Source: Escherichia phage vB_EcoM_CUA3
DNA length: 64,000 nucleotides
Sequence record: PP410321
Reading direction: 5' to 3' (one strand)
This document shows, piece after piece, positions 1 through 5,577 of this stretch (its first letter is position 1; the number at the start of each line of letters is the position of its first letter). Under the pieces are notes generated by a model. It ran no database searches. It was not told where the DNA came from and worked only from the letters and a program-made list of their open reading frames with translations. Both the position numbers and the translations under genes were made by a program.

Positions 1-68
1 GTTTTCAAAAGATATTTGAATACTGAATCTTTGTGCATAAGTCCTCCTACCACATCCATGTGATTAAA

Positions 69-296
69 TTATTTTCCTAAAGAAATACGGGTAGGTTTTT
101 TACCAAAGTATTCTTCATAAGAGCCATCTAAACGACCCGCTTTAGACCGACAATACGAATCGTACTTTTTGTAATAAGTCATCTCGGTATTATAACGCGG
201 GTGTCTATCGGCCATAATAATACTTAATGGCCAACCTTTGGCATAATCGCGAAGACCATTTATTTTACGAATGTATCTTTTCTTTAATTTTAGCAT
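69..296 (-). CDS. hypothetical small basic protein (75 aa)
   Basis: Minus-strand ORF; its ATG (294-296) overlaps the last codons of the upstream gene (tcATGcTAA); no recognisable motif. Confidence 0.4.
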   Translation of the reverse strand: MLKLKKRYIRKINGLRDYAKGWPLSIIMADRHPRYNTEMTYYKKYDSYCRSKAGRLDGSYEEYFGKKPTRISLGK

Positions 297-514
297 GAGC
301 TCGGGTACCAGATTTTACCATCAGAACGAGCAACGAAGGTACGTCCAGCTTCTTCACCATAACAAGAGCTGTTCAACCAGTCTTCGAGACGAACTTCACC
401 GTCATAATCATCGAGCTCAACACCGAAATCCTGAGCAGAAGCCATTTCTTTTACTTTCTTATACAGTGCAGCCAGTTCGAGTGCCGCTTTTTCTAATTCA
501 TTAATATCAGTCAT
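290..514 (-). CDS. small acidic protein, member 5 of tandem paralog array (C-terminus ...WYPSSC)
   Basis: ORF track; acidic N-terminal helix-like segment; C-terminal Trp-x-Pro-Ser-Ser-Cys-stop shared with the four upstream ORFs. Confidence 0.55.
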   Translation of the reverse strand: MTDINELEKAALELAALYKKVKEMASAQDFGVELDDYDGEVRLEDWLNSSCYGEEAGRTFVARSDGKIWYPSSC

Positions 515-526
515 TTTTTTNANNCC

Positions 527-736
527 TTAGCAAGACATAGAGGAGCTAAACCAGAAACCTTCACCTTCAGGAATACCGTAATCATCACGAACCCATTCGT
601 AATCATCATATTCCGGACTAGAAGCTGGAATATATTCTTCGCCACCGGCGTGGAAGTGCTGACCTGTTTCGTCAGCCACGGACTGGCCTTTACGTACTAA
701 TTCACGGATTTGTTTTTCAATTTCATCAATAGTCAT
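527..736 (-). CDS. small acidic protein, member 4 of tandem paralog array (C-terminus ...WFSSSMSC)
   Basis: ORF track; conserved tail; stop codon followed by TAAGG Shine-Dalgarno-like sequence for the next gene. Confidence 0.55.
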   Translation of the reverse strand: MTIDEIEKQIRELVRKGQSVADETGQHFHAGGEEYIPASSPEYDDYEWVRDDYGIPEGEGFWFSSSMSC

Positions 737-745
737 TTTATTACC

Positions 746-943
746 TTAGCATTCGTAAGAGGATGATACCCAAGAGGTACCACTAATTGTAATACAACCA
801 TTATAAAGCGTGATATGACGTTCCAGGTTACGTTGACCATCGATATAGATATCAGCTTCTTCGCGTTCTTCTTTACAAATCTGGATAACGTTTTCAATAG
901 CTGCGGCTGCAGTACGGATTGCACAATCTAATTCACGAGACAT
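746..943 (-). CDS. small acidic protein, member 3 of tandem paralog array (C-terminus ...WVSSSYEC)
   Basis: ORF track; conserved tail encoded with different synonymous codons than its paralogs. Confidence 0.55.
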   Translation of the reverse strand: MSRELDCAIRTAAAAIENVIQICKEEREEADIYIDGQRNLERHITLYNGCITISGTSWVSSSYEC

Positions 944-952
944 AATATTTCC

Positions 953-1234
953 TTAACATTCAGCAGAAGAGGACACCCAGCCGCCATTTTCTAGGTCGGT
1001 TGTGTAGTCATGAGTATTAACAATAGCCCATTCAGGATGACCATGTTCTTCCCAATGAGCAAGGTCAGCTTTCAAGGCGCCAGGAGAATAATAGTCACCG
1101 CCCATACCGCGAGCAGGGTATATATTAAAATGAGTCTCATATTTGTCTGCAATTTCCTCAGCACGACGAATAGCTTTATGGATGTCATTTACTGCGGCCA
1201 GNNNNTCTTTATTTTTACGGTAATCATTCATCAT
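953..1234 (-). CDS. small acidic protein, member 2 of tandem paralog array (C-terminus ...WVSSSAEC)
   Basis: ORF track; shares the internal EEIADKY...GGDYY segment with member 1; 4 N bases at 1202-1205. Confidence 0.55.
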   Translation of the reverse strand: MMNDYRKNKXXLAAVNDIHKAIRRAEEIADKYETHFNIYPARGMGGDYYSPGALKADLAHWEEHGHPEWAIVNTHDYTTDLENGGWVSSSAEC

Positions 1235-1243
1235 AGCGTTTCC

Positions 1244-1534
1244 TTAGCACATTGCCGAAGAGGAGACCCAAGCACCAACTGTAACGACACCGTTTTCAAC
1301 TTCGCCGCCGTTGTTTTCAATTTCATCTTTAAACCACTGGGAGCATTCATAACCGACCGGATAGTATGTACGTCCTGAACCATAATCGCCGGTACCGAAT
1401 TGGATACCATACTTATCGGCAATAGCTTCACATTTATGTTCGATGATATCTACTTTACCGAGTAGAGCATAGATAGCCTTTTCTGCAGATTTCTCGTCAT
1501 TGTATTCAGGGATTTCAATTTCAATTTTATTCAT
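1244..1534 (-). CDS. small acidic protein, member 1 of tandem paralog array (C-terminus ...WVSSSAMC)
   Basis: ORF track; AIADKYGIQFGTGDYGSG segment resembles member 2; conserved tail. Confidence 0.55.
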   Translation of the reverse strand: MNKIEIEIPEYNDEKSAEKAIYALLGKVDIIEHKCEAIADKYGIQFGTGDYGSGRTYYPVGYECSQWFKDEIENNGGEVENGVVTVGAWVSSSAMC

Positions 1535-1884
1535 GATTTACATTCCTTAATAAAGGTTTCAAGGTCATTACGTTTGGTTTGTTTTACATACTCATTATAA
1601 TTAGCCATCTCTAAAGCATATCTCTTACGGATTGGAGCATTCAAAGCATTTGTATGGCAAATATCATACACGAGAGGGATAAAATAAGTCACGACAGCTG
1701 GAGCGATTATCATATAGAAGCCCATCTCAATAGGCTTGACTCCTTCGATTGCCGCCATAACCGTGGTCATTACCAGACCAACCAGACCTCCGAGCATACC
1801 GGTGATAATTCCCGTAAATAAGGAAATAGCAATATCATATTCAGCCAATTGATAAACATGTGATGAAAGATTAGGCCGTTCCAT
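1531..1884 (-). CDS. small predicted membrane protein (about 117 aa, two hydrophobic helices)
   Basis: ORF 1531..1908; probable start ATG at 1882-1884 preceded by AAAGAGG; long hydrophobic stretches (GIITGMLGGLVGLVMTTVMAAI, FYMIIAPAVVTYFIPLV). Confidence 0.5.
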   Translation of the reverse strand: MERPNLSSHVYQLAEYDIAISLFTGIITGMLGGLVGLVMTTVMAAIEGVKPIEMGFYMIIAPAVVTYFIPLVYDICHTNALNAPIRKRYALEMANYNEYVKQTKRNDLETFIKECKS

Positions 1885-2413
1885 TTTGAACCTCTTTAGC
1901 GTATTCACGGCATTCTTTAATAAAATTATTAAGCTTACGTTGCTGTTTACGACTTTCTAATGTATACTCGTCTGCCAAAATAGTAAGTTCACCTTTATCG
2001 TAATTTTTAATATCCGAATAACTCGGGCGGCGGTCGACCATTCCAAATACATCACCGTTTTCTAGTGCCACATAACATACTAAATGATAATCATCATCTG
2101 CATCATTAATATGTACACAGTCGGTACTCTCGTTTAAAGAATATACCGAATATCTCACTCCGGCGAATTTAGCACTCTGTATACCCAATNNNNNGTCGAT
2201 GATTTCTAAAGCTTCTGCAAAAGAAAGGTCTTCAGCTAAAGCAAAGATAAAGGGTAATTTGGTAGTATCGCCACGGCTAGATGTTCTGCTTAAGAAATCG
2301 TTTGAATAGCCTAGGTCTTGGCGAATTCTATAAAGAACTGAATTGGTTTCATGGGAAAGACCACTATTTTTAAACCAATCAATATTTGATATCAAATTAT
2401 CATATAAACTCAT
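1871..2413 (-). CDS. hypothetical protein (180 aa)
   Basis: ORF track; ATG at 2411-2413 preceded by GGAGGAGAGGAG; 5 N bases inside; no recognised motif. Confidence 0.5.
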   Translation of the reverse strand: MSLYDNLISNIDWFKNSGLSHETNSVLYRIRQDLGYSNDFLSRTSSRGDTTKLPFIFALAEDLSFAEALEIIDXXLGIQSAKFAGVRYSVYSLNESTDCVHINDADDDYHLVCYVALENGDVFGMVDRRPSYSDIKNYDKGELTILADEYTLESRKQQRKLNNFIKECREYAKEVQNGTA

Positions 2414-3055: not shown

Positions 3056-3132
3056 AGTATTTCCTTCAGTCGGTTGATATTTTGTAATCCACGAGGACAT
3101 TATACCCTGTCCTCAGAGGTTTGTAAACATTT

Positions 3133-3576: not shown

Positions 3577-4232
3577 NTTNNNNNNNNNNNNNNNNNNNNN
3601 NNNNNNNNNNNNNNNNNNNNNNNNNNNNNNNNNNNNNNNNNNNNNNNNNNNNNNNNNNNNNNNNNNNNNNNNNNNNNNNNNNNNNNNNNNNNNNNNNNNN
3701 NNNNNNNNNNNNNNNNNNNNNNNNNNNNNNNNNNNNNNNNNNNNNNNNNNNNNNNNNNNNNNNNNNNNNNNNNNNNNNNNNNNNNNNNNNNNNNNNNNNN
3801 NNNNNNNNNNNNNNNNNNNNNNNNNNNNNNNNNNNNNNNNNNNNNNNNNNNNNNNNNNNNNNNNNNNNNNNNNNNNNNNNNNNNNNNNNNNNNNNNNNNN
3901 NNNNNNNNNNNNNNNNNNNNNNNNNNNNNNNNNNNNNNNNNNNNNNNNNNNNNNNNNNNNNNNNNNNNNNNNNNNNNNNNNNNNNNNNNNNNNNNNNNNN
4001 NNNNNNNNNNNNNNNNNNNNNNNNNNNNNNNNNNNNNNNNNNNNNNNNNNNNNNNNNNNNNNNNNNNNNNNNNNNNNNNNNNNNNNNNNNNNNNNNNNNN
4101 NNNNNNNNNNNNNNNNNNNNNNNNNNNNNNNNNNNNNNNNNNNNNNNNNNNNNNNNNNNNNNNNNNNNNNNNNNNNNNNNNNNNNNNNNNNNNNNNNNNN
4201 NNNNNNNNNNNNNNNNNNNNNNNNNNNNNNNN

Positions 4233-4439: not shown

Positions 4440-4515
4440 TGGTCGAGACAGTAGGGATCGAACCTACGACCCAGGACTTAGAAGGTCCTTGCTCTTCCTT
4501 CTGAGCTATGCCTCG
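4440..4515 (-). tRNA. tRNA-Arg (anticodon UCU)
   Basis: Manual cloverleaf fold of the reverse complement: acceptor CGAGGCA/TGTCTCG, D-arm GCTC/GAGC, anticodon loop CTTCTAA, T-arm GTAGG-TTCGATC-CCTAC, encoded CCA; 76 nt. Confidence 0.8.
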
Positions 4516-4519
4516 TATT

Positions 4520-4594
4520 TGGCGGACATGCATGGATTCGAACCATGGACCAATTGATTAACAGTCAACTGCTCTACCACTGAGCTACACATCC
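4520..4594 (-). tRNA. tRNA-Asn (anticodon GUU)
   Basis: Manual fold: acceptor GGATGTG/CATGTCC, D-arm GCTC-AGTGGTA-GAGC, anticodon loop CTGTTAA, T-arm CATGG-TTCGAAT-CCATG, encoded CCA; 75 nt. Confidence 0.8.
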
Positions 4595-4598
4595 AAAT

Positions 4599-4672
4599 TG
4601 GTGGCCCTGGGTGGAATCGAACCACCATCCAGCGATTATGAGTCGCTCGCTTGACCGTCCAGCTACAGGGCC
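4599..4672 (-). tRNA. tRNA with CAU anticodon (Ile2/lysidine-type or Met)
   Basis: Manual fold: acceptor GGCCCTG/CAGGGCC, anticodon stem-loop AGCGA-CTCATAA-TCGCT (resembles the E. coli tRNA-Ile2 anticodon arm), T-arm GGTGG-TTCGATT-CCACC, encoded CCA; D-arm atypical. Confidence 0.65.
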
Positions 4673-5577
4673 TTAATTNNNNNNNNNNNNNNNNNNNNNN
4701 NNNNNNNNNNNNNNNNNNNNNNNNNNNNNNNNNNNNNNNNNNNNNNNNNNNNNNNNNNNNNNNNNNNNNNNNNNNNNNNNNNNNNNNNNNNNNNNNNNNN
4801 NNNNNNNNNNNNNNNNNNNNNNNNNNNNNNNNNNNNNNNNNNNNNNNNNNNNNNNNNNNNNNNNNNNNNNNNNNNNNNNNNNNNNNNNNNNNNNNNNNNN
4901 NNNNNNNNNNNNNNNNNNNNNNNNNNNNNNNNNNNNNNNNNNNNNNNNNNNNNNNNNNNNNNNNNNNNNNNNNNNNNNNNNNNNNNNNNNNNNTCTATTA
5001 TGAAAGGCTCTTTGAGTGAAGAACCTTTGGTAATAGAGGGTATTAATGATAGAGTAATAATATCATATAATTCTTAAAGCATATTAANNNNNNNNNNNNN
5101 NNNNNNNNNNNNNNNNNNNNNNNNNNNNNNNNNNNNNNNNNNNNNNNNNNNNNNNNNNNNNNNNNNNNNNNNNNNNNNNNNNNNNNNNNNNNNNNNNNNN
5201 NNNNNNNNNNNNNNNNNNNNNNNNNNNNNNNNNNNNNNNNNNNNNNNNNNNNNNNNNNNNNNNNNNNNNNNNNNNNNNNNNNNNNNNNNNNNNNNNNNNN
5301 NNNNNNNNNNNNNNNNNNNNNNNNNNNNNNNNNNNNNNNNNNNNNNNNNNNNNNNNNNNNNNNNNNNNNNNNNNNNNNNNNNNNNNNNNNNNNNNNNNNN
5401 NNNNNNNNNNNNNNNNNNNNNNNNNNNNNNNNNNNNNNNNNNNNNNNNNNNNNNNNNNNNNNNNNNNNNNNNNNNNNNNNNNNNNNNNNNNNNNNNNNNN
5501 NNNNNNNNNNNNNNNNNNNNNNNNNNNNNNNNNNNNNNNNNNNNNNNNNNNNNNNNNNCATATTAATATAGTCAAGT

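Follow-up and report, generated by a model that had tools for sequence, protein, structure and literature searches.

MenT toxins add nucleotides to the 3' ends of tRNAs, and ANT enzymes transfer a nucleoside monophosphate (NMP) to hydroxyl groups of their substrates. The pairing of a small protein with a MenT-like nucleotidyltransferase is already known from bacterial toxin-antitoxin systems: MenA1, a helical protein of 68 amino acids (aa), is encoded just upstream of MenT1 and its helix blocks active sites (PMC10435456), and a second report describes MenA1 as inducing auto-phosphorylation of the MenT1 active-site Thr (PMC11375011). Here we analyzed a stretch of 64,000 nucleotides of Escherichia phage vB_EcoM_CUA3 (sequence record PP410321), referred to as the window, in which positions 290-1534 hold five consecutive minus-strand open reading frames (ORFs) encoding acidic proteins of 65-96 aa that all end in Cys. 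These proteins belong to a widespread family with a conserved C-terminal tail, whose genes are linked to that of a nucleotidyltransferase with the Pfam domains DUF7277 and DUF7275. Drawing on synteny only, we favor, with somewhat less than even confidence, the reading that the small proteins serve this enzyme as dedicated partners and that their tail engages its active site as an acceptor or pseudo-substrate.

Five Cys-tailed genes under purifying selection

The first 3.6 kb of the window are ~92-93% identical to the genomes of the T-even relatives JS98, JS10 and NC-G (Dhakavirus), and the phage itself is a JS98-like Dhakavirus. All five ORFs and Cys tails that the original prediction had listed in this interval are present; each ORF starts with ATG and ends in Cys-TAA, with isoelectric points (pI) ranging from 4.2 to 5.4. 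They are listed below with their E-values against PHROG profiles and a family hidden Markov model (HMM), and with their ratio of non-synonymous to synonymous differences (pN/pS) relative to JS98.

1244-1534, minus strand: member 1, 96 aa, ending in GAWVSSSAMC (phrog_899 E 1e-22; family HMM E 3e-24; pN/pS 0.03)
953-1234, minus strand: member 2, 93 aa, ending in GGWVSSSAEC (phrog_899 E 3e-18; family HMM E 4e-22; pN/pS 0.24)
746-943, minus strand: member 3, 65 aa, ending in TSWVSSSYEC (phrog_4882 E 2e-36; family HMM E 0.003-0.006; pN/pS 0.15)
527-736, minus strand: member 4, 69 aa, ending in GFWFSSSMSC (phrog_899 E 2e-13; family HMM E 6e-19; 0 non-synonymous and 7 synonymous differences)
290-514, minus strand: member 5, 74 aa, ending in KIWYPSSC (phrog_899 E 4e-10; family HMM E 7e-4; pN/pS 0.08)

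Four members thus match phrog_899 (E 1e-22 to 4e-10) and the 65-aa member matches phrog_4882, both profiles being labeled "unknown function". A single family HMM matches all five proteins, and no other ORF of the window gave a family match. The tail reads W-x-S-S-S-x-x-C in four of them and WYPSSC in the fifth. Member 1 displays the full family motif (long N-terminal helix, AIADKYG.QF, GDYGSGRTYYP and tail), and member 2 carries EEIADKYETHF and ARGMGGDYYSP; the EEIADKY...GDY(Y/G)S segment previously noticed in these two proteins is real and forms part of the family motif IAD..G..F / YGxGG.YYP. Member 3 is a minimal version made of helix and tail without the YGxGG loop, and its HMM match is weak, yet its tail is identical. 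Member 5 likewise keeps helix and tail and lacks the Gly-rich loop; its tail is shortened, and the motif recurs once inside the protein as DWLNSSCYGE. This subtype, with an internal DW[LQ][NS]SSCYGE plus the terminal motif, was also found in phAPEC8 and in an Aeromonas phage, beside the same enzyme (L016:3413-3631, L025:3749-3964).

JS98 orf128 (annotated as RB69 ORF137c-like) and orf127 (RB69 ORF136c-like) are the equivalents of members 2 and 3, respectively. The JS98 ortholog of member 4 is intact at 5346-5555 (minus strand) of the JS98 locus (L001) and is unannotated in the RefSeq record, where it falls in the gap between orf126 and orf127. In the window, 11,821 bases are masked as N (for instance at 521-524, 1202-1205, 2190-2194, 3577-4232, 4319 and 4679-4993), including short runs in two of the five array ORFs or their spacers; the four masked bases at 1202-1205 translate to X residues in member 2.

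Pooling the five genes against their JS98 orthologs yielded a pS of 0.245, a pN of 0.023 and a pN/pS of 0.09, with every single gene below 0.5. The array genes are therefore under strong purifying selection, and together with the shared HMM this establishes them as the genuine paralogous coding genes that had been proposed. The earlier argument from synonymous codons was extended to 35 distinct family genes: the conserved Ser codons are of the TCN type 76 times and of the AGY type 28 times, two codon families that lie two substitutions apart, and the terminal Cys is encoded by TGC in 25 genes and by TGT in 10. All three stop codons are used in these 35 genes, and the sequences 3' of the stop are unrelated. 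The mixture of Ser codon families, the varied stops and the unrelated downstream context show that the tail is not the by-product of a nucleotide signal and is conserved in protein, not in DNA.

These data bear on an artefactual origin, in which the tail would derive from an overlapping nucleotide signal (the stop codon plus the Shine-Dalgarno of the next gene) or the ORFs would not be genes. What speaks for it is that the ends of four of the five array genes read ...TGY TAA GG, after which the next gene starts. The TAAGG said to follow every stop was indeed recovered in these four only; the stop context of 290-514 is TAAAATT, and the 3' end of this gene is overlapped by the ATG/start of the next ORF (TCATGCTAA). 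Both Ser codon families occur at conserved positions, three stop codons precede unrelated sequences, pN/pS is 0.09, and the tail is retained in the last genes of arrays as well as in unrelated phages. Codon and pN/pS evidence thus rule out this explanation, the probability of which we consider negligible. Chance is no better an account of five Cys-ending genes in a row, since such ends are rare in T4, where they terminate 22 of 1285 ORFs (≥30 aa).

Conservation of the tail across the family

An exhaustive profile search over 1.84 billion representative proteins (E up to 1e-3) yielded 273 representative clusters, nearly all aligned to the very C-terminus, and statistics were computed over 286 family members. 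We defined the family by a C-terminal W-x-[SPAGT]-S-[ST]-x-x-C located no more than 3 residues from the end, together with an N-terminal helix bearing an (E)A(E)xIAD-like motif; on the array, the strict tail fits four of the five proteins and is shortened to WYPSSC in the fifth. Family-wide, it fits 265/286 members, and Cys is the last residue in 273/286 (95%). The second Ser of the tail is invariant and the third position is Ser or Thr. The most conserved feature of the family is this tail, in which nucleophilic side chains (Ser, Ser/Thr, Cys) cluster at the chain end after an aromatic anchor. Its Cys is the sole Cys in 184/286 members (64%), ruling out an intramolecular disulfide or metal site.

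Family members have a median length of 84 aa and a median pI of 4.44, and 67/286 contain extra internal W(x)SS repeats, such as WESSSEGWESSSEGWVSSSSQC in member P0095. The consensus is ...A..I..L...A.....EAE.IAD..G..F.F..aYGMGGTYyP...(variable acidic insert)...dW..s......eGgW[VI]SSS.sC, with ExIAD.xGxxF....YG(M/S)GGxYYP as the family-wide motif. AlphaFold2 (AF2) predicted member 1 as a compact helix-plus-sheet domain (predicted local distance difference test, pLDDT, 90.9), and the predicted fold plan comprises a long N-terminal helix, a small beta-sheet, a variable acidic insert and the C-terminal tail. Paralog bodies diverge within a genome, while each ortholog is conserved between phages. 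Searches of Pfam, NCBIfam and PADLOC with the five proteins and consensus-like members returned nothing significant, and no PDB fold match was found for the small family. Distant members are all named "hypothetical" in databases, save for P0349 and P0400 (112 and 76 aa). JGI lists these two as "seryl-tRNA synthetase" and "non-ribosomal peptide synthetase component E", labels that at such lengths were almost certainly assigned in error by automatic annotation.

The S-x-x-Cys-COOH spacing of the tail is that of AviCys (aminovinyl-cysteine) and small lanthionine rings in epidermin-type peptides. A cross-link like that of ribosomally synthesized and post-translationally modified peptides (RiPPs) would have the tail Ser activated (for instance through O-nucleotidylylation or phosphorylation) and eliminated to dehydroalanine, to which the terminal Cys would add to form a lanthionine/AviCys-like ring (S-x-x-C). 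The tandem, precursor-like genes beside a single candidate modifying enzyme and the usual position of Cys as last residue fit this scheme, which is attractive as chemistry but which we regard as very improbable: no LanB, LanM, LanKC, LanD or radical S-adenosylmethionine (radical-SAM) protein was found in the Pfam-called neighborhoods (≤5 kb, eight contigs) or among the genes of the annotated phage loci. The prediction is of folded domains with the Trp in a sheet rather than of unstructured leader-core peptides. In 10 members the Cys is followed by further residues, and the spacing differs in member 5. We also know of no nucleotidyltransferase of this kind that drives Ser-Cys cross-link chemistry.

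A tBLASTn search for close relatives found 386 phage records (Dhakavirus, Mosigvirus, Karamvirus and T4-like phages of Klebsiella, Serratia and Aeromonas). Members of the consensus type were identified in jumbo phages of Erwinia and Xanthomonas, in Myxococcus phage Mx1, in Pseudomonas Otagovirus phages and on metagenomic contigs of up to ~396 kb. Copy number varies among relatives, with 5 copies in Dhakavirus, 3 in Mosigvirus, 1-6 elsewhere and 0 in T4: scanning the complete T4 genome with the family HMM found no member, which answers the question raised in the original prediction of whether a named T4 ORF corresponds to the family (none does). Since T4 lacks the whole module, both small family and partner enzyme, the reference phage gave no clue to it. 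T4 Tk.1 (62 aa, L026:5347-5535, minus strand) has a marginal HMM match (E 0.008-0.018) over the N-terminal helix and F.F..YG..TYY, without the tail; it may be a family relative that has decayed, or the match may be due to chance.

Linkage to a DUF7277-DUF7275 nucleotidyltransferase gene

Loci were retrieved from IMG/VR using a degenerate DNA pattern for YGMGGTYYP. In these loci, family genes occur singly, in tandem pairs or in triplets and are followed on the same strand by a gene for a ~300-aa protein starting with MLxIGSxAL...D.D, which matches Pfam DUF7277 in its N-terminal and DUF7275 in its C-terminal part. The same holds for JS98 orf122 (RB69 ORF134c-like; L001 3084-4043, minus strand; DUF7275 E 1e-78, DUF7277 E 1e-26). 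With an offset of 4821 between window and L001 (window position 1 corresponding to position 4822 of the JS98 locus), the orf122 equivalent is expected ~779 bp past window position 1, outside the window, and from its close relatives we infer that CUA3 carries the enzyme gene. The order in Mosigvirus is three family genes, one small ORF and the enzyme.

Linkage was assessed from both sides. Starting from the family, we found a DUF7277-DUF7275 gene on the same strand within ~1.5 kb downstream in 8/8 IMG/VR loci with enough flank, in 3/3 phages (Myxococcus Mx1 and the jumbo phages Hallingskeid and XbC2) and in 7/8 contigs picked solely on length. Counting Dhakavirus/Mosigvirus as one lineage, this amounts to enzyme adjacency in 19/20 lineages, the other neighboring genes being variable. 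Starting from the enzyme, a tBLASTn search yielded 733 phage records, among which arrays of 2-6 copies lie directly upstream in five further lineages with differing surrounding genes:

phAPEC8: 3 family copies upstream of the enzyme
Otagovirus phiPsa381: ~5-6 family copies upstream of the enzyme
Acinetobacter phage Lazarus: at least 2 family copies upstream of the enzyme
Ralstonia phage RSP15: 3 family copies upstream of the enzyme
Aeromonas phage 50AhydR13PP: 2 family copies upstream of the enzyme

The module thus spans Straboviridae, jumbo phages, phAPEC8-like and Otagovirus phages and Myxococcus Mx1. It resides in large, mostly lytic phages and in phage-like metagenomic contigs; locus L039 also has an integrase gene. 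Streptomyces, Vibrio and Gordonia phages with distant DUF7275 enzymes have another small neighbor, with the pattern ...YF+..G.Y.SW....WDG.L.EV.P... (L022:4633-5311, L023:3705-4001, L021:4600-4890), which may be an alternative partner family.

This linkage must be weighed against the possibility that the small proteins are independent effectors acting on host targets (as nucleic-acid mimics, in anti-defense or in takeover), with a tail that serves folding, oligomerization, metal binding or host docking, and that they neighbor the enzyme merely through a shared early accessory operon. Such a role would suit their strong acidity (median pI 4.44), the position of the array in an accessory region between gene e and the tRNA genes, the lineage-dependent copy number (5 in Dhakavirus, 3 in Mosigvirus, 1-6 elsewhere), the internal W(x)SS repeats of 67/286 members, which resemble short linear binding motifs, and the one locus (L040) without the enzyme nearby. 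It accounts poorly for enzyme adjacency in 19/20 lineages across unrelated phage families with differing neighbors, and neither a match in the PADLOC defense library nor a named homolog was found. We consider it unlikely. The anti-defense or host-takeover role that the original prediction gave to the array is a guess from genome position only.

A MenT/ANT-like enzyme as proposed partner

The DUF7277-DUF7275 family comprises >2,200 proteins (E ≤ 1e-10) and is uncharacterized, the name "putative nucleotidyltransferase" being already used in some GenBank records. Its features are an invariant G-S/D-x-D/E motif (the catalytic motif is intact), one invariant Cys (KVCTS) and a C-terminal H...DHD..H pattern. 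Comparison of the enzyme with known proteins gave the following values, other small nucleotidyltransferases coming below LnuA:

MenT1 toxin: 10.0
ANT(2'') AadB: 8.4
TglT / MenT3: 8.4
MenT4: 7.8
LnuA: 7.0

The enzyme is a nucleotidyltransferase of the pol-beta superfamily, of the MenT/ANT-like fold class; by sequence (Pfam), it is not a DUF1814 protein.

RNA ligase, polynucleotide kinase or phosphoesterase genes were found within a few kb of the module in at least 8 loci. Clusters of tRNA genes adjoin the enzyme in CC31 and in Gordonia phages, with the CC31 enzyme gene directly following the tRNA cluster. The proximity of RNA-repair and tRNA genes suggests that the enzyme would act on RNA or tRNA ends, like the RlaP enzymes encoded by large phages (PMC7824862).

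Three other assignments were set aside. A C-terminal HD phosphohydrolase domain, raised from the H...DHD..H pattern, has no Pfam support and is speculative. A role in the arabinosyl-hydroxymethylcytosine (arabinosyl-hmC) DNA modification of RB69-like phages was rejected: the RB69 paper is silent on these ORFs and the Thanatos nucleotidyltransferase is a sugar pyrophosphorylase. Finally, T4 NrdC.11 is not the equivalent enzyme, as it matches Pfam RlaP and not DUF7275.

Given this enzyme class, the small proteins may be MenA1-like regulators only, whose helix would bind the enzyme and inhibit, time or retarget it in the manner of an antitoxin or specificity subunit, without covalent change, the tail providing contacts or blocking the active site. 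The small gene lies upstream of a MenT-like enzyme as in menA1-menT1, the conserved long helix of the family carries EAExIAD, and RNA ligase, polynucleotide kinase or tRNA genes near many modules suggest an RNA/tRNA-end substrate. For MenA1, which is 68 aa long, a long helix suffices for inhibition (PMC10435456, PMC11375011). A pure binder, however, seldom requires an invariant Ser-Ser/Thr...Cys at the chain end, and multiple paralogs per genome would be superfluous for simple inhibition. The family, moreover, resembles neither MenA1 nor any PDB chain in sequence or fold, and the enzyme is not DUF1814 by sequence. We regard regulation without modification as doubtful, if a little less so than the independent-effector explanation.

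A proposed partnership between tail and active site

Of the roles first suggested for the tail (docking, packaging, modification or targeting), docking or modification fits best, as in nearly every case the family genes immediately precede that of one conserved nucleotidyltransferase, and nothing points to packaging into the capsid or to a role like that of internal proteins. In the partnership that we favor, the conserved N-terminal helix would dock onto the enzyme, and the flexible, hydroxyl- and thiol-rich tail would reach the catalytic G-S...D-x-D...E center. There, the invariant tail Ser/Thr would accept a nucleotidyl or phosphoryl group, or the tail would imitate an RNA 3' end and so act as a pseudo-substrate. 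The divergent paralog bodies would provide one enzyme with several specialized partners; the occurrence of one enzyme with ~1-6 paralogs of constant tail and variable body fits such a one-enzyme, many-partners logic, and the joint absence of the two families from T4 also speaks for the partnership. We infer from the conserved gene linkage that the proteins would interact physically, with the tail at the active site.

A more specific version is that the enzyme would covalently modify the invariant Ser of the paralog tails, through O-nucleotidylylation or phosphorylation, after which elimination and capture by the Cys might follow, so that the paralogs would become armed effectors or RNA 3'-end mimics. 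We hold covalent modification to be improbable as it stands, about as much so as independent effectors.

Several observations weigh against the partnership. Residues beyond the Cys (1-3 in 10/286 members, ~3%) and the shortened tail of member 5 indicate that a free Cys carboxylate is not strictly required. In the AF2 monomer, the tail Trp lies within a beta-strand of the fold and the tail has a pLDDT of ~76, so that tail conservation may be partly structural. In JS98 and NC-G, orf122 follows the array at a distance of ~1 kb, and the interval holds three small ORFs unrelated to either. Contig L040 has two family genes and no enzyme within 5 kb, and no family gene was found near the enzyme in CC31 and in distant Vibrio, Gordonia, Streptomyces and Roseobacter phages. 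Genes of phage accessory regions may, finally, be linked through co-regulation and not through direct partnership.

Genomic surroundings of the array

The array lies in an accessory region between the lysozyme gene e and the tRNA genes, in agreement with the placement originally given to it. The neighboring features are:

1531-1908, minus strand: predicted membrane protein gene (125 aa, phrog_2330), upstream of the array
3099-3127, minus strand: candidate sigma-70-type promoter (TTTACA-17-TATAAT, 11/12 consensus, a consensus match only), upstream of an e.6-like gene
4440-4672, minus strand: tRNA genes Arg-TCT, Asn-GTT and Met-CAT, ~3-4 kb from the array on its upstream side
1-38, minus strand: start of a JS98 orf124-like gene (the minus strand of 38..1 reads MHKDSVFKYLLK and matches the start of JS98 orf124)

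The stop of the membrane protein gene overlaps the start of member 1 (ATGA); the Mosigvirus gene in its place is annotated as a T4 e.3-like membrane protein. From the promoter candidate to the array, the minus strand showed no terminator-like site, and by its sequence this candidate could be the start of a minus-strand (early) transcript running through the array.

Significance and comparison with known systems

This analysis assigns a testable partnership to two widespread families without a described function, the Cys-tailed small proteins and the DUF7277-DUF7275 nucleotidyltransferase. The phage setting, the tandem paralog arrays, the fold of the small protein, the Cys-terminated tail and the DUF7275 domain are new. 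Were the tail a substrate or pseudo-substrate, MenT/AbiE-type chemistry would extend from bacterial toxin-antitoxin systems into phage biology, and the partnership could reveal a new protein modification or a new phage control of tRNA-end chemistry during infection. Covalent modification of the tail, if true, would represent a new protein-tagging system with a MenT/ANT-like enzyme that is common to many large phages.

A full-text literature search found nothing relevant on either family, on phage MenT homologs or on Cys-tailed phage paralogs. The array resembles the T4 internal proteins in that small phage proteins share a terminal tag and occupy the same general genome region, but its tag is C-terminal whereas theirs is an N-terminal capsid-targeting sequence. 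Regarding a link with internal proteins (IPI-III, Alt), there is no PHROG or Pfam match and no T4 homolog; the prohead-protease cleavage motif was not examined. Lanthipeptide/AviCys precursors share with the family the tandem multi-copy small genes and the C-terminal Ser...Cys with S-x-x-C spacing and Cys last; the conserved and variable parts of the Cys-tailed family are, however, arranged unlike leader and core.

On the enzyme side, ANT(2'')-Ia (AadB) and LnuA act on small-molecule substrates, have no protein partners and no phage role, and are 5-10% identical to the phage enzyme. To our knowledge, RlaP has no described partner family of small Cys-tailed proteins. RlaP-type enzymes such as T4 NrdC.11 are similar in being phage pol-beta nucleotidyltransferases often encoded near RNA ligase, polynucleotide kinase and tRNA genes (PMC7824862).

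Compared with MenAT and AbiE, the C-terminal domain of the phage enzyme is DUF7275 and not DUF1814, the Cys-tailed family shows no homology to MenA1 or COG5340 / AbiEi, and the module resides in phages and phage-like contigs whereas theirs are on bacterial chromosomes. The small gene also differs from that of MenAT in forming tandem arrays of divergent paralogs, and the W-x-S-S-S-x-x-Cys tail is without counterpart in MenA1, the C-terminus of which is dispensable. MenA1-MenT1 is nonetheless the closest analogue, the likeness being that the gene of a small helical protein lies upstream of that of a MenT/ANT-like enzyme.

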